Notes under the pieces: model-generated | The model's database searches: none | Seen by the model: the letters and a program-made list of their open reading frames with translations, nothing else | What the model was told of the DNA's origin: nothing | Shown: in pieces, positions 6,324-61,681 of the stretch | Numbering within the stretch: position 1 is the stretch's first letter | Layout of the letters: each line of letters begins with the position of its first letter | Source: Naegleria gruberi | Lineage: Eukaryota | DNA: 64,000 nt | Reading direction: 5' to 3' (one strand) | Assembly (NCBI GenBank): GCA_000004985.1 | Contig: GG738863.1 | Position numbers and translations under genes: made by a program

Positions 6324-6324
6324 A

Positions 6325-6374
6325 NNNNNNNNNNNNNNNNNNNNNNNNNNNNNNNNNNNNNNNNNNNNNNNNNN
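6325..6374. other. assembly gap (50 N)
   Basis: Run of N; interrupts the NHL/GPS gene. Confidence 0.99.
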
Positions 6375-22337: not shown

Positions 22338-22597
22338 TCTATCTAATATCAATGACCAATCTTTTTTTACTTTTATCTCATGAATGTTGTCTCTTTACTC
22401 GCACTACATGCTTGAGGAAGGTGAAGTACAGATGTGGATTAATTTTTGCGCACGAGGAATTATTTCATCCAACAATTTTTTATTGTTTGATTTGGCGCCA
22501 CAAAAACGACCCAGCACAACGTCTTTTAGAAATTTGGATAAAAAAACAAATTATTTATTAACAAGCAAAGGAAGATGATAGGAGAGAAAGGAATTTA

Positions 22598-25500
22598 TTA
22601 ATTAATGGATAAAGGTTTGCATTGTTGGATAAATTCATAGAGTGGATAATATCTAACAATGGAATTACTAGCAGTCAAGGTATGAGCAACAACCTTAATA
22701 CAATATCCTCTATAGTACAATTCTGGATCACACAACAAGTAGAATTTGGCTTTACAATAGTCTCCGTTACCTTCCCACAAGAGAGTTTCTTCCATATTGG
22801 AGTGTTCAAATCTAAATCTCAATTGACCCAAATCATATGTCTTTTTAGCTTCACCTTCTTTGATTCCACTGTTGAAGAGAACAATTCCTTCATTGCCAGA
22901 ATCTAATTTAACTCCAACAAATGATTGCTCTCTATTAATAATATCACTACATTCATCAAAGAAGTCATTATCTCTCAAGTATGATTTGGTTTTAAATTCT
23001 TGAGGAGTAACAATTCCACTCAATTCTGGAGTCATGTAAACAATTTCCATTGATTTGGATTGATTAAGTGAGTCAGTAAAGCTGAATCTAAAAGTGCATG
23101 GATATGGTAAATCATATGGTGTCATATGAAGGGCTCTATAAGACTTTGGACAAATTCCTTGATAATCAACAGCAGCCTTGATGAGATACTCCTTGCTTGT
23201 TGATCCTGAACTGAGATTGATAGTTTTACCCCAAACATATTGACCTTGGGTTTCACTCTTTCTAACTACAAATTCAACATCTCTACCAAAGTTTGTAGAG
23301 GTAGCAGTGGCAACAGTTGCAGCTTCCCAATAGGCAGCTTCAACACCACCAAATGCTTTCCAAGTTGTTCCATCATGATCCAAATATTCAAGTTTCATGG
23401 AGGTAATTGAAATTGGTGAGTTCAATTTGTTTGTGAAACGGAGATTGATCAATTCCAAAATTATTTCTTTTCTAGAACCGACAATGGCAATAGATGTATA
23501 GGAGCTTCTTTCACTTAAGTTTTTAGAGGTAGCACAATCTGGCAAGACAATGGAGATTGAACTTGAACCAACAGCAACAGGATCGACCAAGAGAGAACGA
23601 TCATTTACGAGTTGCTTAAGTGGTCCCATTCCTTCAGTGACAGGGGTGAATTTTTCTTGAATAACTTTGGAATAATACTTCTCCAAACCTTGTAAGTCTT
23701 TGATATTGGTTGGCTTGGCATTATGAGAAGCACAGCCATGGTGAGTTTCTTCCTCTTCTGGTTCATCAGCAAGTGGTTGTAAAGCAACTCTTTCAGAAAT
23801 TTCGTGAGTTGGATTCTTCTTCTTGTGAACTTTGGCGTCACGTTCACACAAACCAACACCGCAAGTCTTACAATCCATGAGTGAATCAACATTTTCTTCT
23901 AAATCTTCTAAACAAACTTTACAATATTTAGTTTGTTCATGCAATTCAATCAACTTGTTGTGAGCTTCAATATTTTTCAACTTTTCTTGTAATTTGTACT
24001 TTTTGATATCACCATTAACTGGAAGAAGAGCTCCAGTTCTTGTTTCAGCAGGAACAAATTCACCAAATCCATAAACTCTAAAAGTACCCAATAATAAGAG
24101 ATTAGAAGTTTCGAATTTCCAGTATCTAGCCTTGAAGCCAGTTGAACTTTCATCAATTTCAAATCTATTCAAATATGGATATGGTTTGGATTCTTCAATA
24201 GTCTTATCGAAACTAATCCAAGGTTCAGTTTCTCTAATTCTGTAATACACTCTAATATCTGAGCAGAAATTGGTTTGGGTTTTTTCATTGTACAATGCAT
24301 GAGTATAATATTCAATATATTTGAAGAAGTGAATATTAGTATAACTTAAAATCAAAGTACCAAATGGTGAACAGATACCATATTCAGCAGAATCATCCAA
24401 AATACCTTTTTGATTATTTTCAGCTCTATCATAGGTATTAAATTTGGTTGCTTGTTTAGGTGTTTTGGTTTCATCATCTTCTCTTCCAATCATCATATCA
24501 TTTGGAACTAAACAATTGATTTCACTACCTCTGTATGGAGTCATGTGAATTGCTTCTTGTTGATCTCTAGAGAGGAGTAAACCCTTTGTAGTATTATATG
24601 GAACAAATGGAGCAACAGCAAAGAATTGAAGCATACCAAATGAAAAGTCACCACAAATTCTTTCAAATTTCCAGAATCTAGCAGTAATACCTTCATCACC
24701 ATTAAACTTCCAAATATTGAGTTTTGGCCAGTGGTAATACTTTTGATCAAAAGTATCAACTTTAGTCCAGGCATCACCTTCTTGAACCTTATAGTACAAA
24801 TTCAAACGGTGACGAAGCTCATCATCAAACTTGATAGTCTTTTGCTTCTTGAATTCCAAATATTTGAAAAGATGAACAGCTTCAAATTCAAGAACCATAT
24901 AGTTATGAACAGATTGACCTATAGCACATCCAGCCACTCCTGAATCATCAATAATACCTTCAATAGTGTTATTGGCTCTATTATTATTCTTTGATGAATA
25001 GAGTTTGATTGGAGCAACTACGTTAACATCTGGACATGTACTTTCAGTATAGATTGGATCAACAAGATTTGCTGGAGCAAGTTTTGGAATATCTGAGTGG
25101 TCATTTCTAATTGTTTCAATCTTGACTTCACCACTGTAGTCAGCATTACCAATCTTAAAGTTTTGAACTGGAGCCATAGCATAAAATTTGAGCATACCAA
25201 CTGCTAAAGTACCAGTCAATCCAGAGTGTGGAGTTTGTACAAAACGGAAATATCTAGCTCTATGTCCACATTCTCCAAAATCTACCATTAAAACACCTTG
25301 GACACTTGTCTTGATTTCTGTAATATGCTGCAAAGTAACCCATGGATCTCTACTTCTCATCTTGTATTCAAGTGAAACACCAACAATTGAAGAGGTTTGA
25401 GTTCTACCCCAACCATCTACTTTTTCAAATTGTTTACCATTAGGATGTTCTCTAAATGCCAAAACTCTGAAATTGTAAACACGTTCAAATGCAACTTCAA

Positions 25501-28468
25501 TAAATGATGAAGTACCATCATTTGTGGCAAAACCTGGTTTTCCATCTGATCTTAATAAATCATCAATAACTTTTGGATCAGTCTTGGTACGTCTATTAGT
25601 ACTGTGATACATAGCATGAGGTTTGATCAAGTTAATTTGATCACAACCTGGGAATGGATCCTTCAATTGTTCTTCAATTAATTCTGGTGGGAGAATTGGA
25701 CCACTCTTTGTTTCAATTGGAACAAATGGAGAATAACCAAAAGCTCTAAACATACCAATTTCAATACAACTGCTATAAGCAACCAATCTCAAATACTTGG
25801 CCTTGATTGGTTGTGGTAAAGTGATAGTATTTACGAGAGGAGTAATTTGAATTTGATTTTCTTCAATAGTAGTCAACAAGGTCCAAGTTTCAGAATCCTT
25901 CAACTTGTACTCAATTTTAGTATCTTTGAGATAATAAACTGGGTTGCTGACAGTTGTCAAAGTCATGTACTCAAAGTGGGTAAATAAGTAAACATGCTCA
26001 TATTCAAATTCAATTTCCTTATGATTAGAAGTAGTGACATAGCCAAAATCACCAGTATCATCTAATAAACCTTCCAATGTATTTTCACGTCTGGATTCTC
26101 CCTTGGAATTAAGTTTCTTGATTGGAATAAGATTAATTTCTGGACCAGTATATTTTGGTTCCCATTGAGCAAGAGCTTCCTTCACTGATAAAATAATACC
26201 ACTCTTAGTTTGAATTGGTACATAATCACAATAACCAAATAATCTAATCATACCAAAGAAGAGATAATCACGATCTTCCTTGAAGAATCTCCAATATCTT
26301 GCTTTGATTGGTGTATTGAATTGAATAGTATTGACTTGAGGATTGGTTTTGATTTCACTTCTCTTTAATTGAACAGCAAGTGTCCATGAATCTGATTCCT
26401 TAACTTTGTATTCAATTTTAACATTATCTAAACTACTTAATTGCATAGATTCTCCCAATTTACTTGTCTTAAATTCCATATAAGTGAATAAATAGACGGC
26501 ACCATATTTGATTTCAATAAATTGGTTAGAATTATTACCTGTACAAACACCCAATTTACCAGAATCATCAAATAATCCTTCTAAAGTATTATCACCCCAA
26601 CTGTCCTTTGAAGATTGCTTCATTTCAAGAGGAGGGATACAGTTGATATCACCTGAAGTAAATTTAGGTTCATCAGAAACTGTTGGTACAACAACTTGTT
26701 GAGCTACTACTGGTTGTTGAACAACTTGTGGTTGAGGAGTGGAAACAACAGGTGTTTGTGTTACTACTGGAGTAGATGTTACCGGTTGAGAAACTACTGG
26801 AGTGGTTGTTGTTTGTTGAACAACTGGAGTAGATGTAACAACAGGTTGTGAAGATCCAGGAACATAAGGTTGAACTGTACCTGACTTGGTCTTGTGAGCA
26901 ATATATGGAGCATAACCATACATTCTCAACATACCGTAGAACAAGTGGGTCCATTGCTTGAAAAATCTCCAATATTTAGCCTTGATAGGTGTTGTAAAAT
27001 TGATGGTATTGAGCTCTGGATTGAACTTGATATCTGACTTTTCAAGAGTCTTTAACTTGGTCCATTCATCACTTTCCTTAACCTTGTATTCAATTGTTGA
27101 ATCTTGAAGATAGTAGGTTTGATTTCCTTCACCCAATTTGCAAGCTTTAAACTCCAAGAATGTGAACAAGTAAACTTGATCGAAAATCAATCTAATTTCA
27201 GAGCTACCATTTGTTGTACAAGCACCAAATTTACCAGAATCATCCAATAATCCTTCAATGGTGTTATCTCCCCAACTATCTTTGCCAGACATTTTCAATT
27301 CAACTGGAGCAATGACACTAACTTCACCAGATGTATATTTTGGTTCATCTTGAGAAACAGCAACAGGAGGTGTCTGTGTAACTACTGGAGTTACAGTTTG
27401 TTGTTGAGAAACTACAGGAGTGGTTGTAGCTGGTTGAGTGACAACAGGTTCAGATACAACAGAAGATGGTGAAACATATCTAGAAACAACTCCTGAAAGT
27501 GTCTTGATTTCAGTATATGGATGATAAGCAAATAATTTCAACATTCCAAAGAATAATTGGACGAAACCATTTCCCAATTTTGTAAATCTGAAAGTTCTTG
27601 CTTTGACTGGTGTATCAAAATGGATAAATGTACTTTCTGGATTGAGCTTAATATCAGATTTACTGATTTCTCTCAATGGAATCCATTCTTGACTTTCGAA
27701 TTGTTTATATTCGATTAAAGTATCTTGTAATAAACCATATTGATTAATTTCTCCCAATCTATTTGTCTTGAATTCGAGTAATGTGAAAAGGTAAACTCTA
27801 TCAAAAGTGAGAACAATATTCTGCTTCAATCCATTTGAAGTACAAGCACCATGCTTTCCAGTTTCGTCTAATAATCCTTCAATGGTGTTATTTCCCCAAC
27901 TATCCTTAGTGGATAATACCAATTTTGATGGAGCAATTACACTGATTTCACCTTCTGTATATGGTGGTTCATCTAAATTCTCAGCAACAGTAACTTCTTG
28001 TACATTGGAAACTTGAACAATCTCACCAGTCTTTGTCTTTATATTCACAGCAGGAGCATCACTAGCTCTCAACCACAATCTACCAAAAGCCACATGATGA
28101 GTTCCAAATTTATCAAATTTGAAATAACGAGCTGCACATCCCAATTGCACTTTTTGAATGCCGTGTCCTTCTCTGAATGAATAAATTTCCTTCCACGGAT
28201 CACTTTCATTGGAACGACAATAAATATCAACACCCTTTAATCTCTGTTGATCATCGTAATACTTCTTGTTGGAGGTACATTCGAGAGTGGTAAATTGATA
28301 AACTCTATCAAATTTCAACTCTACACAAGGTTTGTTGATAAAATCTGTGGAACAACCATAATCACCAGATTCGTCCAATAAACCTTCAATGGTATTATCT
28401 GACTTTTTACATAAATTATGCACTATCAATTCTGTTGGTGCAACAATAAAACCCTCGCTACTGGACAT
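22598..28468 (-). CDS. giant (1956 aa) protein: eight tandem ~250-aa beta-sandwich (discoidin/galactose-binding-like) repeats separated by T/P/V/Q-rich linkers, then coiled coil, B-box-like zinc finger and a C-terminal domain
   Basis: Single 5.87-kb ORF, ATG confirmed. The repeat core ...SWG(N/D)NTIEGLLD(E/D)(T/S)GK.GACT.NG...VYLFT.LEFK...G...KA(R/K)YWRF... occurs 8 times. A B-box-like CKVCLEDLEENVDSLMDCKTCGVGLCERDAKVHKKKNPTH follows a predicted coiled coil. Confidence 0.7.
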   Translation of the reverse strand: MSSSEGFIVAPTELIVHNLCKKSDNTIEGLLDESGDYGCSTDFINKPCVELKFDRVYQFTTLECTSNKKYYDDQQRLKGVDIYCRSNESDPWKEIYSFREGHGIQKVQLGCAARYFKFDKFGTHHVAFGRLWLRASDAPAVNIKTKTGEIVQVSNVQEVTVAENLDEPPYTEGEISVIAPSKLVLSTKDSWGNNTIEGLLDETGKHGACTSNGLKQNIVLTFDRVYLFTLLEFKTNRLGEINQYGLLQDTLIEYKQFESQEWIPLREISKSDIKLNPESTFIHFDTPVKARTFRFTKLGNGFVQLFFGMLKLFAYHPYTEIKTLSGVVSRYVSPSSVVSEPVVTQPATTTPVVSQQQTVTPVVTQTPPVAVSQDEPKYTSGEVSVIAPVELKMSGKDSWGDNTIEGLLDDSGKFGACTTNGSSEIRLIFDQVYLFTFLEFKACKLGEGNQTYYLQDSTIEYKVKESDEWTKLKTLEKSDIKFNPELNTINFTTPIKAKYWRFFKQWTHLFYGMLRMYGYAPYIAHKTKSGTVQPYVPGSSQPVVTSTPVVQQTTTTPVVSQPVTSTPVVTQTPVVSTPQPQVVQQPVVAQQVVVPTVSDEPKFTSGDINCIPPLEMKQSSKDSWGDNTLEGLFDDSGKLGVCTGNNSNQFIEIKYGAVYLFTYMEFKTSKLGESMQLSSLDNVKIEYKVKESDSWTLAVQLKRSEIKTNPQVNTIQFNTPIKARYWRFFKEDRDYLFFGMIRLFGYCDYVPIQTKSGIILSVKEALAQWEPKYTGPEINLIPIKKLNSKGESRRENTLEGLLDDTGDFGYVTTSNHKEIEFEYEHVYLFTHFEYMTLTTVSNPVYYLKDTKIEYKLKDSETWTLLTTIEENQIQITPLVNTITLPQPIKAKYLRLVAYSSCIEIGMFRAFGYSPFVPIETKSGPILPPELIEEQLKDPFPGCDQINLIKPHAMYHSTNRRTKTDPKVIDDLLRSDGKPGFATNDGTSSFIEVAFERVYNFRVLAFREHPNGKQFEKVDGWGRTQTSSIVGVSLEYKMRSRDPWVTLQHITEIKTSVQGVLMVDFGECGHRARYFRFVQTPHSGLTGTLAVGMLKFYAMAPVQNFKIGNADYSGEVKIETIRNDHSDIPKLAPANLVDPIYTESTCPDVNVVAPIKLYSSKNNNRANNTIEGIIDDSGVAGCAIGQSVHNYMVLEFEAVHLFKYLEFKKQKTIKFDDELRHRLNLYYKVQEGDAWTKVDTFDQKYYHWPKLNIWKFNGDEGITARFWKFERICGDFSFGMLQFFAVAPFVPYNTTKGLLLSRDQQEAIHMTPYRGSEINCLVPNDMMIGREDDETKTPKQATKFNTYDRAENNQKGILDDSAEYGICSPFGTLILSYTNIHFFKYIEYYTHALYNEKTQTNFCSDIRVYYRIRETEPWISFDKTIEESKPYPYLNRFEIDESSTGFKARYWKFETSNLLLLGTFRVYGFGEFVPAETRTGALLPVNGDIKKYKLQEKLKNIEAHNKLIELHEQTKYCKVCLEDLEENVDSLMDCKTCGVGLCERDAKVHKKKNPTHEISERVALQPLADEPEEEETHHGCASHNAKPTNIKDLQGLEKYYSKVIQEKFTPVTEGMGPLKQLVNDRSLLVDPVAVGSSSISIVLPDCATSKNLSERSSYTSIAIVGSRKEIILELINLRFTNKLNSPISITSMKLEYLDHDGTTWKAFGGVEAAYWEAATVATATSTNFGRDVEFVVRKSETQGQYVWGKTINLSSGSTSKEYLIKAAVDYQGICPKSYRALHMTPYDLPYPCTFRFSFTDSLNQSKSMEIVYMTPELSGIVTPQEFKTKSYLRDNDFFDECSDIINREQSFVGVKLDSGNEGIVLFNSGIKEGEAKKTYDLGQLRFRFEHSNMEETLLWEGNGDYCKAKFYLLCDPELYYRGYCIKVVAHTLTASNSIVRYYPLYEFIQQCKPLSIN

Positions 28469-29507: not shown

Positions 29508-30915
29508 ATGCCATCAACAACCACTTCATCATCAAAAGCAAGTTCCTCCACTTCATCAAACACTTCATCAAATACTTCGGGAAAGAAGATTTCACCTGCT
29601 TCTTCATCGTCATCTGGGACAACAAGAGAGAAAACTGCTTCATCAAGAAAGGGAGAATCAACAAGTACTGATTTTTCTACCCTTATAAAAACCAATCCAA
29701 AACTTTCTGCCAAACCAATTACCAATAAGGATGGAGATGATATAACAGAATATTTTGATGAAACTAATGTTTTGAATGCCAAGATTGAACATTTAGTCAA
29801 TCTCATAAATCAATCCAAACATATTGTATTATATACAGGTGCTGGTATCAGTAGAGCAGCAGGTATTAGAGATTACAGATCTCCTAATGGTATGTTTACA
29901 ATAATTCTTTTCATGGAAATTAATTAAATTTCTGATAGGTGTTTGGACTATGAAAGAAAAGGGAGTAAAAACTGTAGCAAAGAAGGATGAATCAAAGATA
30001 ATCTTCCCAACTCGTACTCACATGGCTATTTCTACATTATACAATGCTGGAAAGATTCAATATGTAACTTCTCAAAATGTTGACGGATTGCATGTTAAAT
30101 CAGGAATTCCAAGAAAGAATATGAGTGAATTGCATGGTAATACCAATGTTGAGATTTGTCACAAATGTAACATAGAATATGTCCGTAATTTTAGATGTAG
30201 AAATAACAAGAATGTTCACGACCACAGGACTGGAAGATTCTGTGAAAAGTGTAAAAGTGAATTGGAAGATACAATTATTAATTTCAATGAAAATTTACCA
30301 ACTGATCAATTGGAAAGAGCAGAGGAGAATGCTTCCAAGGCTGACCTGGCTATTGTCGTAGGAACAAGTATGAGAGTTAATCCTGCATGTTCCCTTCCAC
30401 AGATGTGTAAAGAAAATGGAGGAAAATTAGTCATTATCAATCTCCAATTAACTCCAAAAGACAAGAAGGCAGATTTGAGAATTTTTGCAGAAGCTGACAA
30501 GGTTATTGATACGGTAATGAAAAAGCTGGCTTTGGAAATACCTCCATTCATTCTAGAAACTGAATATTCATTAGAAAGCTTTGAAAGTGTCAATCCAACA
30601 AGTGAGAAAAAGTTAATTGGATTCAAAATTACTAGTCCATCTCCTTTAGGACCAATGGGTTCAAAGGTATTGAGATCAATCAGCCTAAAGGTTCACGGCT
30701 CAAAAGTAGTGAGCTTTAAGGATACTATGATGCTCGATCCAATTCCATCCGATTGTACAAAGATATCAGCAGTACTGAAGTATAATCTGAATTCAATTGA
30801 TGAGAAGGAAGCCAAATGCACTATTGAACTGGAAAATCCACTGAACATTACTTCGAAATCCTTTGCTTTAAAGGTGAACACATCAACCAATGAAATTACA
30901 GTTACAGAAAAGTAA
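29508..30915 (+). CDS. sirtuin (Sir2 family, class IV SIRT6/7-like NAD-dependent deacylase/ADP-ribosyltransferase), 2 exons
   Basis: join(29508..29889,29939..30915). A 49-nt intron (GTATGT...GATAG) splits ...YTGAGISRAAGIRDYRSPNG|VWT.... Conserved GAGIS, QNVDGLH, HG and a Zn-binding CHKC...CEKC module are present. N-terminal S-rich extension. Confidence 0.8.
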
Positions 30916-31128
30916 ATAAAATTCGCCACTCTTAATCACTTCAATAAGTGTCATTTAAAAAATTGTAAAATTCACTCAGCAGCGTAATGTCAAGCACGGA
31001 GGAACAGAGCTATGCGCCACCCGACTCTGCGACATGCCGCAATTAATTTCCATTCAAATTTGATGCGAAACACTCGAGTTTGGTCAAAAAAATTCAACTA
31101 AAAAAACAAACAGTAAACACATTGAAAA

Positions 31129-32985
31129 ATGATTTGGGTGTGGTTGTTAACAGCATGCATTGGATACCTTTCATTTGTTGCTCTGAAAATTTATTTAAAT
31201 TACAGAAAGGTGGCACACATTCCTGGACATTGGCAAATTGTTTCGCTTTTTTGGAGAGTGCCAATTATTTCTCCCTATTTACACATGAATAATCAACGTT
31301 CAGTGACTGAGTTGATGGAAAAGTATGGTGATAAGGAGAGTGGTATTACTAGAATGTCACTAATGGATAGAAATATGGTCATTATTAATGATAAGGATCT
31401 GTTAAAGGAAGTTATCATTACAAAGGGATCAATCTTTACAAAATTCACAGAAGTTTATGAAGTTTTCAAAGTGTTTGGAGAGAATATCTTGACAGTTTTG
31501 GATGCTTCTTCAGATTCATGGAAAAATCATCACAAGATATGTTCGCCTGCATTCACAACTCAGAATTTGCAATATTTGTGTGAATATGCTGCCAAGTCTG
31601 TAGAAAAATTATTCGAATCTAGATGGGAGAAACAAAAGGGAGATCATACTCTCAAGAATGGAGAAAATTATCAAGATGCTTATTTGACAAGTGACATTAA
31701 GGGTGATTTCAGTGATGTCACATTGGATATATTGGGTCAAGTTGGTTTCGGTTTGGATTTTGAAATTTTCAAGGAAAAAACAGGAACTTTATCCGAAGGT
31801 CAACAATTCAGAAAGAGTTTGGAAGTTTTATTCACTACAGGAATCTTTGTAAAATTATTTATTGGAATGAGTAAGGTGTGGAAGTTTTTATATCCATTTG
31901 CTCAAAAATTATTCAAGGTTGATGTTGCTTATAACATTGTCAGTTCTAAATTGGACGAAATCCTCAAGGAAAGAACCAAAGAAATTGAATTAGCTTATGC
32001 CAACTCTGGAGAAATTCAAACTGGAGAAAGAAGAGACTTGTTGAGTTGTCTCATTGAGGCCAACTATGTTCAAAAGGGAGTTTTGACTGAGGATGAAGTT
32101 AAATCAGATGCATTCATCTTTTCGCTTGCTGGGTTTGTATTCAAATTTTAAAACTATTTTTCCTAATTTTATTGAAATAGACATGAGGTGAGTTTTTGCA
32201 AATTTACAATTTTTTGTAATGATGAATTTTTTATTTGAAATTTTAGACAACTTGTAAGTTTCGATTAATATTTGATTTTTGTTAACATGAGTGATAGCTA
32301 CTACATTACAGGTAAGTTTTCAATGAAAATTCAAGAAAATTCGAATAATATTAAGTGGACTTGTTACGAACTTGGTAAAAGACCTGAAATACTCAAGAAA
32401 GCTCAAGAAGAAGTTGATCGCATACTTGAGAATGGATCAAGAATTGCAACCTATGATGATTTCCCTAAAATGAACTATCTCAACATGATCATTATGGAAA
32501 GTCTCAGAGTTCATCCTCCTGTCAGTGCTGCCTATAGAGTTGCCAAAAAGGCAACCACCATTGGAAAGTATCACATTCCAAAAGATACAATTATTCAAAT
32601 GGAATTTGCTAACACTCATTGGAATGAAAAATTCTGGGAACAAGCCAATGAATATAATCCAGAACGATTCCCAACTGATTTTGAGGATAGACAAAAGATT
32701 CACAGCGATTTCACATGGGTTCCATTCTCAATGGGAAATAGAAAATGTGTAAGTATGACAGTTTTAGTTTATAATAATGATTTGCCTTAATAGATTGGCT
32801 ATAAATTTGCTCAATATGAAGCCTTTGCCATCATGTCACGACTTTTACAATTATACGATATTAAATTGGTCAATGATGAGAGACTTCCTGAAGATCAAGT
32901 GACTGAAGAAAAGGGTCCAACTGTCGGCCCAGGAAATTTACATTTGATTTTCAAGAGAAGATCATCTGTGAATGCATCTCAATAA
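31129..32985 (+). CDS. microsomal cytochrome P450 monooxygenase, multi-exon
   Basis: Proposed join(31129..32132,32181..32187,32247..32253,32312..32748,32794..32985). N-terminal TM anchor, ExxR (ESLRVHPP), PERF-like (NPERFP) and heme loop FSMGNRKC|IGYKFAQ, the latter split by a 45-nt GTAAGT...AATAG intron. The I-helix AGHETT motif appears to be assembled from two 7-nt micro-exons (uncertain). Confidence 0.75.
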
Positions 32986-33048
32986 TTTGAAAATAAACAA
33001 CTTTTCATTGTTCATTGTTCGTTGTAATAATTTAACAAAGAAAAAAAA

Positions 33049-34295
33049 ATGGAACAACACAAAACCAGTTCCATCACCAGTAATAATAATAATTTTTCAA
33101 ATGCTGATCACGAGCACGAACATTCGGAAGTAACAAAAGAAAATCAATTATCAATTTTCGACCAAGTATTGAATGATGATATTTTCCGAATTGTTCTTTC
33201 GTTTTTAAATGTTTCAGAATTGATGATTCTGGCAATTGTTTCTAAAAAATTGAGAATTGGTCAGCTCTCATCAGAAGACTATTTATGGAAGGAATATTAT
33301 GTGAATAGAGTGAAGGTACTCAATGATAATTTCAAAAATCAGTACAGATATCAATTATTGAGGAAAGTCGATAACACCAATTTATTTGAAAAGTATTTAC
33401 GTTTTGATTGTGATTTTAAGAAACATTTAATTGAACTGGGAGCTGAAATGGCATTGAAATCTGAGCAAGATTATAAAAAGAGAACAGAATATATTGAAAA
33501 ATTAAAACAGCTTGAGTATGGGAGAGTGGGCTTTCATACACGAGAGGAAATTCTTGCATGTGATTTGAAAATCAAATATTTACAACCTCAGTACAAAATC
33601 ATTCAAATTGGTAAGTTTTGTTTTTGAAATATTCAACTCAATTTGGATTTAAAGGTGATCAAGCTGTGGGAAAGACCAGTATTTACATGCGAATGCAGAA
33701 TTATGAGATGCCAACAGAGTATACACCAACTGTTTTTGACAATTTTAGTGACACCTATAAATACATAGATAGAAACACAATTAATCTGCACTATTGGGAT
33801 ACTGCTATTCATGAAGGTAAGTTTTCTAATTCAATACATATATTAGAAGTAATTGCAAGATGTGGATCAGTAAGTTGTTTTCTTTGTAACAATATTGACA
33901 CCAATCAAAAAAGATTCAGGATTTTTAGAATTTTCCCTGGTGTAGAGTTATTTCTTTTGAGTTTCAGTTGTGGATCTGATTCTAGTATGGAAAGTTTGAT
34001 ATCAAAGTGGTTTCCTGAATGTATTAAATATTGCCCAAATATTATTCTGGTTTGCACCAAAACTGATTTGAGAAATGAAAAAACCTTTTGTAAGAGATTA
34101 ACTGAGAAATTTCAAAGAAAGCCAATTGGATTCGAACAAGGAGAGCTACTTGCAAGAAAAATGGGATGTATTACCTATTTGGAAACCAGCTCTTTTAACA
34201 ATGAAGGTATCAAAGATTTGACTGAAATTATTGCCAAATCTATTGTGATAGCTTCAAATTCAACTCTGAAACAAAAGAAATGCATGCTGCAATAG
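33049..34295 (+). CDS. F-box-like N-terminal domain fused to an atypical (predicted GTPase-deficient) Rho-family GTPase with C-terminal CaaX (CMLQ)
   Basis: join(33049..33610,33655..33816[,33847..34295 or read-through]). A 44-nt GTAAGT intron joins ...KIIQIG|DQAVGKTS (P-loop, with G12-equivalent Gln). Switch II reads WDTAIHE (His at the catalytic Gln61 position). Also ILVCTKTDLR, IGFEQGELLARKMGCITYLETS, CMLQ end. N-terminus has the F-box-like IFDQVLNDDIFRIVLSFLNVSEL. Confidence 0.6.
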
Positions 34296-34330
34296 TTCAC
34301 TTTCAATAATAACTCATGGAAGTGAAAAAT

Positions 34331-34933
34331 TTACTTTATTTTAGAGACCAACCATTCAATACTCTCAGTAATATTAAACTCATTAATTATACTGGTCATG
34401 AAAACTTCGAGAGGACGTTGAGGATTCGACTCGTTAACACCCTTAGTAGGACCAGTTCTCAAATGAGAAACTCCCATTGTACAACAGAGTTCAAATTCAG
34501 ACATGGCTTGAGGATTATCAACCTTATTACCCAGAATTACTACTGGAACATTGGCCAAGTCTGGATCATTTAAAATCTTGGCCAATTCCTTAGCAGCAAC
34601 CTGAGATCTCTTTCTATCCATTGAATCGACAATGAAAACAATACCATTCACATCAATGCAATATTGTTTCCAAAGCTGACGTGCCAGATCATGTCCTCCC
34701 ATATCTATGGCTTCCACAGAACATGTCGATGAAATTTCAATGGATTCCTTATTGGGAGTAGTTGTACTTTGATAGGCACCAATAAGATTACTCTTCAATT
34801 TGTGCAATAGTGTTGTCTTTCCAGCATTGTCTAATCCTAGAAATATAATCTTTCCCTTCACTGATGACATTAATCCCAATAATTTCAGCAAGTCAGAGCA
34901 ATAATTTAAAATCCAACTGAAAAATGAAGACAT
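34331..34933 (-). CDS. sar1: SAR1 small GTPase (COPII vesicle coat)
   Basis: Intronless 200-aa ORF, ATG confirmed. GLDNAGKTTLLH, DMGGH (DxxG), ILGNKVD (NKxD) and the RPLEVFM C-terminal region are all SAR1-typical. Confidence 0.85.
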   Translation of the reverse strand: MSSFFSWILNYCSDLLKLLGLMSSVKGKIIFLGLDNAGKTTLLHKLKSNLIGAYQSTTTPNKESIEISSTCSVEAIDMGGHDLARQLWKQYCIDVNGIVFIVDSMDRKRSQVAAKELAKILNDPDLANVPVVILGNKVDNPQAMSEFELCCTMGVSHLRTGPTKGVNESNPQRPLEVFMTSIINEFNITESIEWLVSKIK

Positions 34934-35597
34934 TTTTGATTACAATATTTTACAATATGAGTGAAAGAAGTAGGTAGAAGTTTGTTTAATTGAGAACTGA
35001 GCAGTTACCAATTATTGTTGTTTTTTTTGATTATGAAAATTTCATTATTATCAACTCATTAGAGTTTTTAAATAGATTCGTATCAAACACCTCACCACAC
35101 GTGTCGGTTGGACAAATTTGGAAATCAATGACGTATACTCCAACGTCATCCCTCAACAAACAAATTGTGTTATTCTGAAACTTTTGTTTATTAGTCCTCA
35201 GAAAACATGTTCATCCAATAAAGTGGAAATATGTTATTGATTAATATTTAATAAATTTTGTTCTTTATAAAAATGATTGAGATGGTCATTCTCTACTTTA
35301 ACTTGGCATTTGCTTTGATTCCAACAAGAGTTTCTCAAAAGAATATAGTACTGCTTCTCATCAATCTTCCAAAGGTACATTTGAAGGAATGAACGAAAAG
35401 ATATGAACAAGCATTTTCCGAATGTTCCAGTACCTTCTCTGCTAAGGCATTGGAAAAATGTGGATTCTCCACTCAACATGCATTCATTATGCTGATTATG
35501 AGATTACCAAAGATCAAAAGGTTCTCAAACCATTCGTTCATGTTCCACTTCCACAAATCTATGAATTTAGTTTAGAATTATCATTTGTAAATAACAA

Positions 35598-37359
35598 TCA
35601 TTGTAATAGGCATTTGACATTTTTCAATAAAACTAATTCCTTGTAAGGAAATGTTTTCCATTGTGGGTCTTTCTTAATTTCTTTCAAATGTGAAGCAAAG
35701 GAATATAAAACCACTTTTTGTAATTGTAGAGCTTGGTAGGTTTCTGAAATTTCAAAAATGGTAAACAAGTCAATAGAGCAGTCTTTGAGAGGAGTTTCCA
35801 ATTCTTCATTTACTATTGAAGCAATGTATAATTCGCATATAGAACTCAATGAACTGATCATATACTTATTCGATAGGGTTAGAAGACTTATTGCATTCTC
35901 TTCGGTCATTTCTACCTTTCCAGTACTAATATATTCCACAATTGATTTGAAATGATAATAAAACTTTTCGTCTCCTTCTGAATCATTTGTCAAGTCCACA
36001 ATACAAGATTCACTCTCTGTAAAATTGCCTTCAAACATAATTTGAAAATATTCACAAGCACACGACAGAAAGTTTCTATTCGATTTCAAAATATTGTTCC
36101 CAATCATAAACGAAACATCCAACCAATGAGAATTTTCCAATGTAGATTGCCTAATATTATTGAAATAGGCATTATTAATACTGTTCTTGATATGTTCACG
36201 ATCTAATAAATTCTTATTTAAGTGTGTTATTGCCTCATAGTCTGAGAAAGAAAATGGATTTTGAAAATTAATTCCCTCACTCCAATCTCCAGAGTAAACT
36301 AGTTTCAAAATATCAAGAAGGTCTTTTTTCGAAATATTTTCGAAAGCAATACGAACTACTGATATGTTACTATCCAATTCAATACTAAGGTCAATCTGAA
36401 ACTCTTGCTGAATGGAAATAATTTCGCGTTGATCCAAAGATTGACCATTCGAATTAATGATCACTTCTGAAATTCTTTTCAGTAAAGGACAGGGACAACA
36501 ATATAAAATCCAAGAATGTCCAAATAATTTCCCCTCCACGCCACATTCAAAAATCAAATCGCTCTTCCACTCATTATTCAATAACTTGGAGAACTTGTCC
36601 ACTAGAAAATAATCCTCCACTTCAAATTCAGTCAAATTACTTGGCTCAATTGGTCCTCTGTTGAGAAGGTATTCAAAAAAGTTGTTAACACTCAATTCAG
36701 ACTTGGAGGAACAACTAAAAAATCGATCAATTCTTGGATGTCTTCTCATGAAATTTCTAATTTTCTCTTCGCTCACTCCCTGAAATTTCTCATCAGAAAT
36801 TAAATCATTTTTCATTCCAACCAAAACTACAAAATCTATCTGTGTAGATTTTATAATTTTCATCCATTTAGATTCCAAACTTTCAAAGGTCGTTTCATCA
36901 ACCATTGAAAAACTAAATCCAGTCAATAATAATTTCACACAATCACAAACTCACCAAAGAACCAACACATTCATTGAATTAATAAAAGCTCTTTCAACTT
37001 TAATTATGACATCACATTAAATTCCAATTTCCACTAAAACTCACCACTAATAATTCAAATTGTTTGTTTGAATTTAATTTCCTCACTAAATTACTTACTG
37101 AATTTCATCTCCGATCACATCAAATAATGACAAACAAACAGTTGACGAATTTTTCAACTTGATATTAGCAGACTTTTAAAATTGCAAAATAATATTAGTG
37201 GTGATCGGAATTAAAGAAACTCACATAACTATCCAATCGTCTGGGAACGTATTCTCCTTCGAATAGGGTTTCATCATCAACACCTGTATATTTTAATAGG
37301 AATGTGGTTTTCCCACAACCAATGTCGCCAAGCAATAGCACGGCCAGTGGTGGATCCAT
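35598..37359 (-). CDS. RhoBTB-type atypical Rho GTPase with tandem BTB domains, 4 exons incl. two micro-exons
   Basis: Proposed complement(join(35598..36912,36955..36990,37099..37172,37225..37359)). Introns of 52, 108 and 42 nt all have GTGAGT/GTAAGT donors and AG acceptors. The spliced GTPase domain reads MDPPLAVLLLGDIGCGKTTFLLKYTG...EGEYVPRRLDSY|SANIKLKNSSTVCLSLFDVIGDEI|QAFINSMNVLVLC|FSMVDETTFESLESKWMKII...VVLVGMKNDL, collinear with Rho (P-loop, switch II, LCFS, xKxDL). Two BTB-like regions follow. Confidence 0.7.
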
Positions 37360-40621: not shown

Positions 40622-42442
40622 TTACACTTCAAATTGACTTGCCCAATCAATGACGTTTTCTAATAATTCAATAATAGTCTTTTCTTCGTCTGACATTTCT
40701 TCTTCTTGAATATAGTCGTGGACAAGGTCTAATGTACTTGGAATGTTCTTTGTATTACTGAGTTGCATAATGTATAAAAGTAAGCCGTAGAGAGTTGTAT
40801 CACTCAGTGAACTGTAATCAGTAACTTGATTACAAATTTCAACAATCTTTTTGTGGAAGTTTACGAGAGTATCAAGAGTGGCATAGGGTGTCTTTCCAAT
40901 ATTTAAATTATCTAAAATAATAATGGCAGGTTCAAACAAGTCGGCTGATCTCAGTATTCCCTCATCATCCACTCCTAAATCATCAAATGTCACTGGACCA
41001 ATATCTTCCAACTTTCCTTCAATTTCCTTGTTTTGATTTTGAGTTTCATAGACTTCGACAAGAGTTCTATATACACGTTTCATGACACCCTCAGCAAATG
41101 CTTTGGTAATGTAATGTCTCAATTCCATACTTTGAAGTGAGCTCCAATATTGTTCAAGCGAGTTGACTATTGCTGTTGCAAGGTCAGCAATTTGTTTGTT
41201 TGCCTCTCCTACATTAAGCCAGGCTGTATCCTCTTGTTTTTGGAATTCAGCATTGAATTTCTGAGTAAAATGAATTAATAGATTATTAATTGGATGTTGG
41301 GAGACTTGATCTGCAATTTCAGAAATGTGTGAACGAATCATGGCCCATTGATCTTCAGGGGATTCTGTCAATGATAATTCTCTATCAAAGAGCTCATCCC
41401 TAGTCTTGAAAGTTCTCTCCTTTGTATAGATTGAAACGAATTTGGATGATACAAGCTTATTCCAAGGATTACCATCCGATCCATCAAAAGTTGTAGATTC
41501 TCCATCCCAGGCCTCTCCCAATTTGATACTCTTTCTCTTCTCCGAAGGATCAACACCAAATGTTGAAACATCAGAAAGTGAAACAGAAGCACGGTTTCTT
41601 GCCGAATCGAGAGGAGAATTAATTCTTGGAGTGATTGCTCCTGGAGGAGGTTGGAACTCAATAACAGGTCCAGAAAGTTGAACAGAAGATCTATTAGACA
41701 TTGTTCCTAAAGGTGGTTGAATTGCCGATTGTAAAGAGTCTCTTCCATAAGAGCTTGTTGATTGTCTAAGTGTTGATTGAATGATTGGTGAGTTTGAAAG
41801 TTGTGGCGAGATTGTTGGTGATGAATTATTGGAAATATTTGGTTGCAAGTTTGTTGATGGAAGCGAAGGTGCTGATGGATTAGTACTGCCATTACTGAAT
41901 GGCATGTTGTTACTGATTGGAGGAGGTGTATTGAAAGTCATAGATGATCTCAATGAATTGACATCACTAGGTGTGTTGCTTGTTGTTGAAGTAATGGAAG
42001 ATCTATTGGAGAAATGGAAGGATGAATTCATAGAGGTTGGTATTTGTTGTAAAGATGATGAAGATGAAGAATTGAAACCACTACTTGGTATATTAATCAT
42101 TGAAGTTGATAGATTTGAATTTCCGGTAACTCCAATACCAAATGAATTATTAGGAGTCAAAGTATTGCCACCTGAAGAAGAATTTGGTATTTCCTTGTCC
42201 ACAATATCGGAAACTCTTTCAAAGCACATTTTACAAATCTTTAAAGCTTGAGAAACTTGTTTAAATGTTTGTGCATTTGATTTCAATTCCTCTGCCAAGT
42301 TATCTTCCTTCAATAATTGTCCAAGTGAAAGCATACAAGCACCATATTGCTTCAGTGCTTCACTAAAATTACGTTGTTCATCTCTTTTAATTGCTTCACT
42401 ACTTTTCAATTTGATAGAGTGAATATTAAATTGATTCACCAT
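40622..42442 (-). CDS. hypothetical protein: N-terminal MIT-like helical region, long S/N/T-rich linker, conserved ~270-aa C-terminal domain (possibly VPS9/RUN-like, unverified)
   Basis: ATG confirmed. 606 aa. No catalytic motif recognised. Confidence 0.45.
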   Translation of the reverse strand: MVNQFNIHSIKLKSSEAIKRDEQRNFSEALKQYGACMLSLGQLLKEDNLAEELKSNAQTFKQVSQALKICKMCFERVSDIVDKEIPNSSSGGNTLTPNNSFGIGVTGNSNLSTSMINIPSSGFNSSSSSSLQQIPTSMNSSFHFSNRSSITSTTSNTPSDVNSLRSSMTFNTPPPISNNMPFSNGSTNPSAPSLPSTNLQPNISNNSSPTISPQLSNSPIIQSTLRQSTSSYGRDSLQSAIQPPLGTMSNRSSVQLSGPVIEFQPPPGAITPRINSPLDSARNRASVSLSDVSTFGVDPSEKRKSIKLGEAWDGESTTFDGSDGNPWNKLVSSKFVSIYTKERTFKTRDELFDRELSLTESPEDQWAMIRSHISEIADQVSQHPINNLLIHFTQKFNAEFQKQEDTAWLNVGEANKQIADLATAIVNSLEQYWSSLQSMELRHYITKAFAEGVMKRVYRTLVEVYETQNQNKEIEGKLEDIGPVTFDDLGVDDEGILRSADLFEPAIIILDNLNIGKTPYATLDTLVNFHKKIVEICNQVTDYSSLSDTTLYGLLLYIMQLSNTKNIPSTLDLVHDYIQEEEMSDEEKTIIELLENVIDWASQFEV

Positions 42443-51389: not shown

Positions 51390-51725
51390 GTATTGGAATA
51401 GCTTACAAGGTTGAAATTACTTCATTGCAATTAAATGACAGATGACATTAATAAACTTTCACGTTTTTCTATGCTAATATTAAGTGATGTTATGTTTCAT
51501 TTCACTTATATTTGACTCATTCATCAATTAGATTGCCAAGTTTTATCAAGCGATGTTAATTGTTTCATTTCACTAATGTAACCTTCTTGTTTTACCATGA
51601 TGATGACAATGATGCTGTAATTACAGAAGAGTTTTTTACATTTATCCTAAATCCACAAGCACTTGGAACTTATTGGTCAACTTGCTTTTCGAAATGGTAT
51701 TCATGGAAACACAACATTGAAAAAA

Positions 51726-61226: not shown

Positions 61227-61681
61227 TTTTTTCTGGTTGATCAAAGCCTTAAAATTTGGCGGGAAAATAGTTCTTTCATTTTTGAGTGAATAAACAATTG
61301 ATTCAAAATCAGATTTTCATTACAAACTCTCTTGATGGTGTCATTATTTTGCCAAGAGACCATTTTGATGTACATCAATATTCGATTGACAGTCAAAACA
61401 TGAATTTATTGATGTTGAATTCACTTCAAAAATTGGCGCCTAACAAAATTTTTCAACTCAAAAAAAAAACTTAACAACACTCTCTGCATACATAGTTTCG
61501 CTTCAGAGTTTCATCCTTTTCCTCTGTATAAACAGTACTCTCAGATTCTGTTGATACCAATAATACGTGTATACTTCTCCGGTTGTGAGACTACAAATAG
61601 TAGAAGAGCAAGAGAAGAATTTTTACAAACTCTATTTAAATATATTAATATATATAATAACATAGCCACAACAGACCACAT

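Follow-up and report, generated by a model that had tools for sequence, protein, structure and literature searches.

A locus with three small GTPase genes

The window analysed here, a stretch of 64,000 nucleotides from Naegleria gruberi (contig GG738863.1), harbors three small GTPase genes within 4.3 kb, one on the forward strand (gene 1) and two on the reverse strand (genes 2 and 3), at the positions given by the original prediction (Table 1). Gene 1 encodes a protein of 371 aa that runs from an F-box-like motif through a helical linker and a Rac-like Rho domain to the CaaX box CMLQ, a terminus which had been correctly foreseen. It is virtually certain that the window comes from N. gruberi, that gene 1 is the already catalogued "Rac + F-box" gene XP_002678060.1, part of a multi-paralogue family with named members in heteroloboseans, and that genes 2 and 3 are, respectively, a lineage-specific SAR1 paralogue and a gene of the RhoBTB type.

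Table 1. Positions of the three GTPase genes and their features in the window
Feature	Position	Strand	Remarks
Gene 1	33049-34295	+	ATG at 33049, TAG at 34293-34295
Gene 1, exon 1	33049-33610	+	residues 1-187 and first base of Gly188 (translation)
Gene 1, F-box-like motif (LNDDIFRIVLSFLNVSELMILAIVSKKLRIGQLSSEDYLWKEYY)	33169-33300	+	residues 41-84; PF00646 match
Gene 1, predicted helical linker	33301-33588	+	residues 85-180, about 95 aa; alignment A1
Gene 1, intron 1	33611-33654	+	44 nt, GTAAGT..AG
Gene 1, exon 2	33655-33816	+	P-loop to switch II (translation; Rac1 alignment, E = 2.8e-36)
Gene 1, DQAVGKT (rest of G1 motif)	33657-33677	+	translation, Rac1 alignment
Gene 1, DTAIHE (G3)	33798-33815	+	Ile239 and His240 at the Rac1 G60 and Q61 positions
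Gene 1, intron 2	33817-33859	+	43 nt, GTAAGT..AG
Gene 1, microexon (ATGTGGATCA)	33860-33869	+	10 nt; codons for ED-VDQ-F
Gene 1, intron 3	33870-33913	+	44 nt, GTAAGT..AG
Gene 1, exon 4	33914-34295	+	rest of Rho domain: TKTD (G4), Rho insert, SSF (G5)
Gene 1, CaaX box CMLQ	34281-34292	+	directly before the TAG
Gene 2, divergent SAR1 paralogue	34331-34933	-	single exon, 200 aa; Pfam Arf 9.6e-45
Gene 3, RhoBTB-like	35598-37359	-	525 aa (curated model); reconstructed with the help of the Herman et al. sequence (PMC8296547), as far as printed there
Gene 3, exons	37359-37225, 37172-37099, 37033-37016, 36990-36955, 36912-35598	-	curated model

Structure of gene 1

The original prediction joined the two parts of gene 1 across a single 44-nt intron. 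The 33610/33655 junction stands, with ...YKIIQIG joined in frame to DQAVGKT across a GTAAGT..AG intron, but the gene has three introns (44, 43 and 44 nt) and a 10-nt microexon. From the N-terminus on, exon 1 encodes a low-complexity tail, then the F-box-like motif and the helical linker, and lastly strand 1 of the GTPase domain (KIIQIG). The Pfam Ras match (2.2e-24) begins at residue 183, within this exon, and the GTPase domain thus straddles intron 1; since KIIQIG and the F-box share one open reading frame, the fusion does not depend on the splice alone. Introns 2 and 3 and the microexon are needed for an uninterrupted reading frame and for a switch II of the Rho type (EDVDQFR, compared with EDYDRLR in Rac1). 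Enumeration of the splicings around switch II gave 30 ORF-preserving combinations, 29 of them besides the chosen model; in two of the 30, switch II is followed by a stretch of 21-22 residues, and only the microexon model reproduces EDxDxxR. The other splicings, such as a single 30-nt intron leaving a 19-residue insertion, were dropped in favor of this model, which alone restores EDxDxxR, has introns (43 and 44 nt) resembling intron 1, and equals the model curated by Herman et al. (PMC8296547).

Automatic callers split gene 1, giving a 191-aa product (P0009) that is exon 1 read into the intron and, on contig L001 of a second strain, a separate 201-aa Ras ORF. One could therefore suppose that separate F-box and Rho genes have been wrongly joined in our gene model, an explanation to which we give almost no credence. 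Unspliced exon 1 stops 4 codons into intron 1, a G domain without exon 1 would lose its first strand, many paralogues show the same architecture as continuous proteins, and the expert-curated model is identical (PMC8296547). The predicted fusion is real: the Ras domain begins in exon 1, the introns are short and canonical, and paralogues share the architecture.

Contig L001 is about 99% identical, and the 371-aa ORF and the splice sites are intact in it. Intron 1 measures 45 nt there, this 1-nt indel being the only non-triplet one, and all exon indels are of 3 nt. As the divergence is only ~1%, the support for the exon/intron model from this comparison is modest and rests on the indel pattern and the unchanged G-domain residues. 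Within the G domain (residues 188-345), the strains differ at 2 synonymous sites and at no nonsynonymous one; in exon 1, 5 differences are nonsynonymous and 2 synonymous, which suggests that the N-terminus is weakly constrained.

A family of F-box-Rho proteins

A search with exon 1 alone recovered 25 relatives; paralogues occur in N. gruberi, N. fowleri, N. lovaniensis and Willaertia magna, and all named members of the family are heteroloboseans. Full-length F-box-linker-Rho members include P0017, P0019, P0020, P0021, P0029 and P0033, and some proteins bear N-terminal Kelch repeats, such as P0016 (Kelch-F-box-Rho). Proteins of this family consist of an F-box, optionally preceded by Kelch repeats, a helical linker that is conserved, a Rho domain of the Rac-like kind and a CaaX(Q) box, in this order. 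The exon 1 search brought up no close orthologue of gene 1 from N. fowleri or N. lovaniensis; apart from gene 1 itself, the top match had 36% identity in the N-terminal region. The full-length protein retrieved only generic Rho proteins (<=38% identity) and no orthologue from a word-indexed protein collection that includes N. gruberi proteins; a profile search of this collection with alignment A1 returned only 4 proteins, not enough for a deeper alignment.

The architecture had been thought to be undescribed, which is incorrect. In the 2021 Naegleria GTPase survey of Herman et al. (BMC Biol 19:142, PMC8296547), Additional file 10 Table S8 lists an N. gruberi "Rac", XP_002678060.1*, with "F-box" as extra domain and without a pseudogene flag. 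Its 371-aa sequence equals our gene 1 model exactly, microexon residues included, and the two are the same gene without sequence differences. The neighboring RhoBTB gene appears in the same table as XP_002678166.1*. The methods of the survey name SMART, Pfam and CDD, and GTPase-dependent ubiquitination is proposed in Supplementary Material 4 (Additional file 4); the passages considered here contain neither an analysis of catalytic substitutions nor functional data for XP_002678060.1. The names in UniProt and public annotation are "F-box domain-containing protein" and "Rho family small GTPase". The literature and public annotation thus already cover both the gene and its architecture, and their inclusion in the 2021 survey makes gene 1 uncharacterised rather than new.

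A fusion of an F-box with a small GTPase has also been described in Euglenozoa: TbFRP from Trypanosoma brucei is a FYVE-F-box-Ras-like GTPase, which the 2013 TbFRP paper attributes to Field (2005) (PMC3593210). Like gene 1, it belongs to a discoban protist and has its F-box N-terminal to a Ras-superfamily GTPase domain, and a link to ubiquitination or turnover has been proposed for it. Unlike gene 1, it has a FYVE domain and a GTPase nearest to Rab18, not Rho. Considering these differences and that no TbFRP orthologue was found in N. gruberi by the same authors (PMC3593210), the two fusions are independent.

The N-terminal domain

The Pfam scan agrees with the predicted combination of domains. 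With PF00646, gene 1 is borderline alone, at 19.7 bits for the full protein and 20.8 bits for the N-terminal segment (cut-off 20.5). At the level of the family, PF00646 is found in 17 of 23 members and PF12937 in 14 of 23 (E < 0.01), and the family profile matches the FBXO3 F-box at E = 7e-7, other F-box proteins coming next (FBXL5 at 1.7e-3). This family-level evidence clearly points to an F-box. The Leu-Pro at the start of F-box helix 1 is absent, the family consensus being L-N-D-D with Asn opposite the Pro of FBXO3. F-boxes usually read L-P-x-E at this site, and the Pro is absent from some genuine F-boxes too. The linker contains a motif conserved in the family, (N/D)(F/Y)(K/R)xxLIE in alignment A1, of which gene 1 has the version DFKKHLIE. 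AlphaFold2 models are all-helical, but their confidence (pLDDT 44 for exon 1 alone, 42 with a 5-sequence alignment) is too low for a fold search.

The module might instead be a degenerate F-box that does not bind Skp1 and serves as a lineage-specific helical extension for regulation, dimerisation or targeting. The borderline score of the gene 1 protein, Leu-Asn for Leu-Pro throughout the family, the low-confidence models and the fast N-terminal divergence between strains would all be in keeping with this. We nevertheless consider it unlikely, given the match of the family profile to FBXO3 and then to other F-box proteins, the presence of PF00646 in most members, and the independent F-box annotation in the UniProt names and by Herman et al. 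(PMC8296547).

An atypical Rho domain

The G domain of gene 1 is Rac-like, its top PDB matches all being Rac1/2/3, RhoG and RhoA (E = 2.8e-36 for Rac1), and a Rho insert helix is present between G4 and G5 (KTDLRNEKTFCKRLTEKFQRKPI, which aligns to Rac1 with a 1-residue gap). The nucleotide-binding residues are kept (P-loop Lys/Thr, Thr35, TKxD, SAx-like motif) and switch I is intact. In place of the catalytically competent G1 and G3 motifs (GxGxxGKT, DxxGQ), gene 1 has GDQAVGKT (G12Q) and DTAIHE (G60I, Q61H), and all three substitutions are kept in the second strain. The original prediction had recognized Gln at G12 and His at Gln61 (WDTAIHE) but overlooked Ile at G60. Its description of these substitutions as typical of constitutively GTP-bound atypical Rhos holds for positions 12 and 61, but not for G60I, by which the DxxG glycine is lost.

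In Rnd and RhoH, which are prenylated, stand-alone and GTP-locked, hydrolysis is lost through substitutions at the positions equivalent to Gly12 and Gln61. Gene 1 shares the substitution of both positions; unlike these proteins, which are stand-alone G domains with the DxxG glycine, it has G60I and an F-box. This glycine is kept in Rnd, RhoH and RhoBTB, and also in nine other members of the family (P0016, P0017, P0019-P0021, P0026, P0029, P0032, P0033). G60I is a more drastic change than Q61H and sets gene 1 apart from Rnd, RhoH and RhoBTB, so that a switch-dead pseudoGTPase is as likely as a GTP-locked form. The domain probably binds nucleotide without hydrolysis or normal switching, and G60I could abolish productive GTP binding wholly.

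These three catalytic substitutions could also reflect relaxed selection on a decaying paralogue, an incipient pseudogene of a birth-and-death family. The lack of a close N. fowleri or N. lovaniensis orthologue in the exon 1 search (36% for the best non-self match over the N-terminal region) would be consistent with such a fate, and birth-and-death evolution with pseudogenes is described for Naegleria F-box Rab-like clades (PMC8296547). However, both strains have an unbroken ORF and intact splice sites, residues 188-345 show no nonsynonymous change against two synonymous ones, the protein retains its nucleotide-binding motifs and its CaaX box, and the gene is unflagged in Table S8 (PMC8296547). 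Decay is thus very unlikely.

Possible role of the fusion protein

In fusions of small GTPases with cullin adaptors, ubiquitin ligation is linked directly to a nucleotide switch. Known examples are RhoBTB with Cul3 and Rab40 with Cul5. RhoBTB proteins of metazoa, as well as Dictyostelium RacA, resemble gene 1 in combining a cullin-adaptor module with an atypical Rho domain that is off consensus at positions 12 and 61. They differ in retaining the DxxG glycine and in their layout, an N-terminal Rho domain being followed by tandem BTB domains (Cul3), whereas gene 1 has an N-terminal F-box (presumed Skp1/Cul1), a C-terminal Rho domain and a CaaX box. Rab40 of metazoa, a Rab with a C-terminal SOCS box (Elongin B/C-Cul5), is a substrate receptor; like gene 1, it is a small GTPase with a cullin-RING adaptor motif, but the position of this motif, the Rab-type G domain and the metazoan distribution set it apart. 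The analogy between gene 1 as a putative SCF component and RhoBTB/Cul3, drawn in the original prediction, is a reasonable hypothesis.

We tentatively propose, as a plausible rather than a probable mechanism, that the gene 1 product is a farnesylated, Skp1-binding SCF receptor with a non-cycling Rho domain as its binding module. Farnesylation at CMLQ would bring the protein to a membrane, where the F-box would bind Skp1 and thereby recruit an SCF ligase built on Cul1. In the position of the WD40, LRR or Kelch modules of ordinary F-box proteins there would be the Rho domain, whose effector face, with switch I intact, may present partners for ubiquitination. Having lost Gly12, Gly60 and Gln61, the protein would act as a constitutive receptor or a pseudoGTPase and would not be GTP-gated. 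As a whole, a catalogued Rac + F-box gene of a heterolobosean family with a putative SCF-receptor mechanism is in our view probably the best explanation of the locus.

Alternatively, the F-box may serve the turnover of the GTPase itself, binding Skp1/SCF in cis and making the protein short-lived, with no third-party substrates. F-box proteins are commonly auto-ubiquitinated, and the TbFRP paper ties the F-box of TbFRP to its rapid proteolysis (PMC3593210). The conserved linker (NFKxxLIE) between F-box and Rho domain and the extra Kelch repeats of some members look like features of a receptor and not of a simple degron, and we hold a role in self-turnover to be rather unlikely.

A wider version of the receptor proposal, which we consider doubtful, is that heterolobosean F-box-linker-Rho proteins are genuine SCF receptors, membrane ubiquitination being nucleotide-gated in the canonical members and the G12Q/G60I/Q61H paralogue being a constitutively engaged pseudoGTPase receptor. 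In print, the SCF-receptor idea for F-box-Rho proteins exists as a one-line suggestion only (PMC8296547). If SCF assembly holds true, these proteins would provide an amoeboflagellate genus, to which the pathogen N. fowleri also belongs, with a naturally occurring set of E3 receptors that are either gated by GTP or anchored in a membrane.

The neighboring GTPase genes

Gene 2, predicted as SAR1, does belong to this family, since it matches SAR1 structures at 3.4e-44 over its full length (residues 1-197) vs about 1e-25 for Arf; it keeps LDNAGKTT and DMGGH. However, it is a divergent, lineage-specific paralogue, and the canonical Sar1 of COPII is probably another gene. The switch-I Thr of SAR1 (HPT) is replaced by Asn, TPN being aligned there, which fits a divergent paralogue of this kind. 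Herman et al. list three N. gruberi Sar1 genes, and only one of them has orthologues outside Heterolobosea (PMC8296547). An exact look-up of the gene 2 product gave no record. Genes 1 and 2 are convergent, their stop codons lying 35 nt apart.

Gene 3 is RhoBTB-like with an atypical G domain (GDIGCGKT, FDVIGDE), as originally predicted; it further contains MKND and terminates in CLLQ. Pfam detects Ras (2.3e-18), one BTB (2.1e-14) and a weak BACK-like tail. A tandem BTB arrangement depends on a first BTB seen by eye only (SDLIFECGVEGKLFGHSWIL ... DLLDILKLVYSGD) and missed by Pfam. The gene model equals the Table S8 sequence over its printed part, about 400 residues; Herman et al. assign it to RhoBTB, without a mark for orthologues outside Heterolobosea (PMC8296547). 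Models with a 2-nt "microexon" or a single 118-nt intron were replaced by the curated one, which has an 18-nt microexon (PMC8296547, as printed). The curated model includes a suspicious 25-nt GTGATG intron.

It is very improbable that the three genes form a functional unit of co-regulated, ubiquitin-linked GTPases in one pathway. Such a unit would accord with their adjacency within 4.3 kb and with the cullin-adaptor-type domains of two of the three (F-box, BTB), both of which end in CxxQ. However, the genes differ in subfamily and strand, and identity between the gene 1 and gene 3 G domains is only 26%, which also means that the cluster did not arise by tandem duplication. The N. gruberi genome contains several hundred Ras-superfamily genes and, by a rough estimate, ~0.1 small GTPase triplets would be expected by chance genome-wide. 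Three adjacent small GTPase genes are only mildly unusual, and their adjacency is most likely coincidental. The assignment of the window to Naegleria is further supported by a SerRS ORF that matches PDB 6blj, the N. fowleri enzyme, at 881 bits.

Gene structure of the F-box-Rho fusion

A Pfam Ras-family match in gene 1 (E = 2.2e-24) begins at residue 183, within exon 1, so that strand 1 of the G domain and the F-box-like motif share one ORF; the fusion claimed in the original prediction rests on more than a splice prediction. Manual curation by Herman et al. 2021 (PMC8296547) arrived at the identical gene model, and our translation agrees letter for letter with the 371-aa entry in its Table S8. 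That the gene is a wrongly joined model is extremely improbable.

The predicted junction at 33610/33655 was upheld in the sequence as a 44-nt GTAAGT..AG intron between ...KIIQIG and DQAVGKT; a single intron, however, was not sufficient, and two more introns and a 10-nt microexon were needed. When the GT..AG combinations around switch II were enumerated exhaustively, 30 kept the ORF, two of which gave a length from switch II to strand 4 within one residue of Rac1; only the microexon model among these two restores EDxDxxR, in the product WDTAIHE-DVDQ-FRIFRIFPGVELFLLSFS, parallel to the Rac1 switch II region. All three introns start with GTAAGT and measure 43-44 nt. A P450 gene upstream has an intron of the same short class directly after its heme-binding Cys (FSMGNRKC/IGYKF). 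Genes 1 and 2 are convergent, with stop codons 35 nt apart, which leaves room only for very short or overlapping 3' UTRs.

Features of the window discussed in the text
Feature	Position	Strand	Remark
Assembly gap (run of N)	~6323-6376		Inside ORF of NHL/teneurin-like repeat protein
F-box-like N-terminus, ORF a	15529-16914	+	By eye
Zn(2)-Cys(6) ORF	20577-22352	-
Discoidin-repeat ORF	22598-28468	-	1956 aa, single exon
P450 intron	32750-32794		45 nt, GTAAGT..AG
Gene 1 start ATG	33049	+	Translation
Gene 1 exon 1	33049-33610	+	Ends ...QPQYKIIQIG
Gene 1 intron 1	After exon 1	+	44 nt, GTAAGT..AG
Gene 1 exon 2	33655-33816	+	DQAVGKT... to WDTAIHE
Gene 1 intron 2	33817-33859	+	43 nt, GTAAGT start
Gene 1 microexon	33860-33869	+	10 nt, between introns 2 and 3
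Gene 1 intron 3	33870-33913	+	44 nt, GTAAGT start
Stop codons, genes 1 and 2	34293-34333
Gene 2	34331-34933	-	Single exon, 200 aa
Gene 3	35598-37359	-	Curated model rebuilt: five exons, 525 aa
Gene 3 C-terminus	35598-35615	-	KCLLQ
Gene 3 switch II region, curated	37098-36955	-
Gene 3 microexon, curated	37033-37016	-	18 nt
Gene 3 alternative intron	37098-36981	-	118 nt, in frame
VPS9 ORF	40622-42442	-	606 aa
Seryl-tRNA synthetase ORF	47100-48524
F-box-like N-terminus, ORF b	51663-53588	+	By eye
F-box-like N-terminus, ORF c	59721-61244	-	By eye

Conservation in a second strain

A 191-aa public protein (P0009) with 97% identity to exon 1 proved to be exon 1 read on into intron 1 (...IQIGKFCF*). 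It is encoded on a 3.9-kb metagenome contig (ENA ERZ929261, 1-3884), on which prokaryote-style gene calling divided gene 1 into two products. This contig shares ~99% DNA identity with 30800-34800 of the window, with synteny of P450, gene 1 and SAR1-like genes, indicating that a close N. gruberi-like strain was present in that environmental sample. The four-exon model yields an intact 371-aa ORF on the contig: of the indels in the gene, a 1-nt insertion in intron 1 is the only one whose length is not a multiple of three, and both exon indels are 3 nt long. Over G domain residues 188-345 the strains differ at two synonymous sites and at no nonsynonymous one, Gln190, Ile239 and His240 being identical, and exon 1 shows five nonsynonymous and two synonymous differences. 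The comparison lends modest support to a maintained gene as against a pseudogene, modest because strain divergence is low; a decaying paralogue is very unlikely.

A degenerate Rac-like G domain

The solved structures nearest to the G domain are Rac1, Rac2 and Rac3 (E = 2.8e-36), then RhoG and RhoA. It keeps the P-loop Lys and Thr, switch-I Thr35 (YTPTVFDN), Asp57, the G4 (TKTD) and G5 (SSF) motifs, the Rho insert and, as originally noted, the CaaX box CMLQ. Comparison with Rac1 bore out the predicted Gln for Gly12 (GDQAVGKT) and His for Gln61 (WDTAIHE), and Gly60 is replaced by Ile. Substitutions at GTPase positions 12 and 61 abolish hydrolysis, whether intrinsic or GAP-stimulated, as Rnd and RhoH illustrate, and the prediction that the product is GTPase-dead is well supported. 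The proposal of a constitutively GTP-bound atypical Rho is not, because gene 1 lacks the DxxG glycine, which couples switch II to the gamma-phosphate and is kept, to our knowledge, in all of Rnd, RhoH and RhoBTB, as well as in the nine relatives read (P0016, P0017, P0019, P0020, P0021, P0026, P0029, P0032 and P0033, public proteins matching exon 1). An equally plausible product is a pseudoGTPase which binds nucleotide but does not switch. Canonical motifs occur in several relatives (P0033 and P0026 have GDGAVGKT with WDTAGQ or WDTGGQ), so the degenerate domain of gene 1 is derived.

An F-box-linker-Rho family

With exon 1 as the query, a HMMER scan across 1.84 billion representatives returned 26 proteins at E ≤ 1e-3, P0009 among them. 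The same fusion occurs in relatives: the matches carry the whole architecture and are not isolated F-box proteins, the F-box being followed by a conserved linker of ~95 residues with an (N/D)(F/Y)(K/R)xxLIE motif and then by the Rho domain. The full-length members, most of which end in a CaaX box with X = Gln, include P0017 (376 aa, CILQ), P0020 (358 aa, CMLQ), P0029 (CSIQ), P0021, P0019 and P0033. A subfamily bears N-terminal Kelch repeats (P0016, 731 aa; also P0010-P0012, P0014 and P0015, which are cut off shortly into the G domain). Every named member belongs to N. gruberi, N. fowleri, N. lovaniensis or Willaertia magna, under automatic labels ('F-box domain-containing protein' or 'Rho family small GTPase'). 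The top non-self match to the N-terminus has 36% identity, and the scan found no close gene 1 orthologue in N. fowleri, N. lovaniensis or W. magna.

The expectation that the N-terminus would match an F-box profile held for the family and only marginally for gene 1. The full protein scores 19.7 bits against PF00646 (cut-off 20.5; 20.8 bits for its 152-aa N-terminal segment) and 14.8 bits against PF12937 (cut-off 24.3); 17 of 23 family members match PF00646 and 14 of 23 match PF12937 (E < 0.01). Against PDB sequences, the family profile hits the FBXO3 F-box first (E = 7e-7), then FBXL5 (1.7e-3) and, weakly, FBXW7, FBXO4 and beta-TrCP. Borderline by itself, the gene 1 F-box is thus identified by the family evidence at the level of sequence. 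AlphaFold2 models were unconfident (pLDDT 44 from the single sequence, 42 from a 5-row alignment), and the F-box fold is a prediction from sequence. The aligned consensus, LNDDxxRxILSFLxIxDLxxLxLVSKxxRxxQLxxEDxxWKxxY, has one clear departure, family-wide: Leu-Asn for the usual Leu-Pro where helix 1 begins. Loss of Skp1 binding by the F-box is unlikely. Three further ORFs of the window have F-box-like N-termini by eye (DVFYYQILPYLP..., LPTDCLLYLCDFM... and FADDICFLIMEYL...), none with a Pfam F-box at E 0.001 or better; ORF c has strong LRR matches.

The original prediction took this architecture to be undescribed, which is refuted by Table S8 of Herman et al. 2021 (PMC8296547): at least a dozen N. 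gruberi 'Rac' proteins with an F-box, some with Kelch or BTB in addition, appear there. The architecture is already catalogued, and Supplementary Material 4 of that study, on multidomain GTPases of Naegleria, puts forward GTPase-dependent ubiquitination. An earlier, independent F-box-GTPase fusion is the FYVE-F-box-Rab-like TbFRP of Euglenozoa, for which its authors found no N. gruberi orthologue (PMC3593210). Overall, the original observation holds with corrections and its interpretation in part: gene 1 is a real, curious gene of a known kind, already named in the literature.

Starting from the observed domain composition, gene structure, substitutions and family conservation of gene 1, we tentatively propose a composite role. 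CMLQ would be farnesylated, anchoring the protein to a membrane (a CaaX box with X = Gln favours farnesyltransferase), and the F-box would bind Skp1/Cul1; the conserved helical linker would set the Rho domain where F-box proteins usually hold their substrate-binding module, and the non-cycling G domain would present partners via its intact switch-I face. That the F-box serves self-turnover of the protein, as proposed for TbFRP, is a somewhat doubtful alternative.

The neighbouring GTPase genes

The SAR1 assignment of gene 2 was upheld by an end-to-end alignment (E = 3.4e-44, against ~1e-25 for Arf); LDNAGKTT and DMGGH are kept, and switch I is divergent, with TPN at the SAR1 HPT position. Herman et al. 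2021 (PMC8296547) count three N. gruberi Sar1 genes, only one with orthologues outside Heterolobosea. Gene 2 is probably XP_002678165.1, since that number adjoins the RhoBTB accession.

Gene 3 is RhoBTB-like, with an atypical G domain (GDIGCGKT, FDVIGDE, MKND), and is listed as the RhoBTB XP_002678166.1* by Herman et al. 2021 (PMC8296547), whose Supplementary Material 4 also places RhoBTB in Naegleria. Pfam reports Ras (2.3e-18), one BTB (2.1e-14) and a weak BACK; the first BTB is recognised by eye only. In the curated switch II region, a microexon precedes a 25-nt GTGATG..AG intron that looks too short beside nearby introns of 42-65 nt; a single longer intron is the in-frame alternative. The stretch coding for switch II contains microexons in both Rho-type genes of the window. 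KCLLQ, directly before the gene 3 stop, is CaaX-like, a C-a-a-Q type end as in gene 1 and many Naegleria Rho proteins; we know of no metazoan RhoBTB with a CaaX box.

Between genes 1 and 3, G-domain identity is only 26%; gene 1 lies on the strand opposite to genes 2 and 3, and each of the three represents a different subfamily. On the assumption of ~300 small-GTPase genes among ~15,700 N. gruberi genes, chance would give roughly 0.1 triplets of neighbouring GTPase genes. We treat the adjacency as coincidence; a functional three-gene unit is highly doubtful. By PF00071, the original N. gruberi genome analysis counted 182 Ras-like GTPase genes, and Herman et al. 2021 (PMC8296547) count >80 Rho, 80 Ras and 60 G-alpha genes. 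Three kb from the cluster lies an ORF with a VPS9 domain at its C-terminus (Rab5-GEF type, 4.8e-8) and, weakly, a MIT match.

Species and other features of the window

The window is AT-rich (G+C ~33%) and gene-dense, its long ORFs broken by very short introns. Its seryl-tRNA synthetase ORF matches PDB 6blj, presumably the N. fowleri enzyme, over its full length (881 bits). The species is settled by Table S8 of Herman et al. 2021 (PMC8296547), which gives genes 1 and 3 as Naegleria gruberi; the gene 3 model agrees with its entry over the ~400 residues printed there.

The discoidin-repeat ORF consists of many ~170-residue repeats matching the F5/8 type C domain, with a cysteine-rich stretch, CKVCLEDLEENVDSLMDCKTCGVGLCERDAKVHKKKNPTHE, in its C-terminal part. 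The NHL/teneurin-like ORF includes a GPS motif, with a transmembrane segment at its C-terminus, and another ORF of this heterolobosean genome encodes a Zn(2)-Cys(6) binuclear cluster domain of fungal type (4.7e-5).
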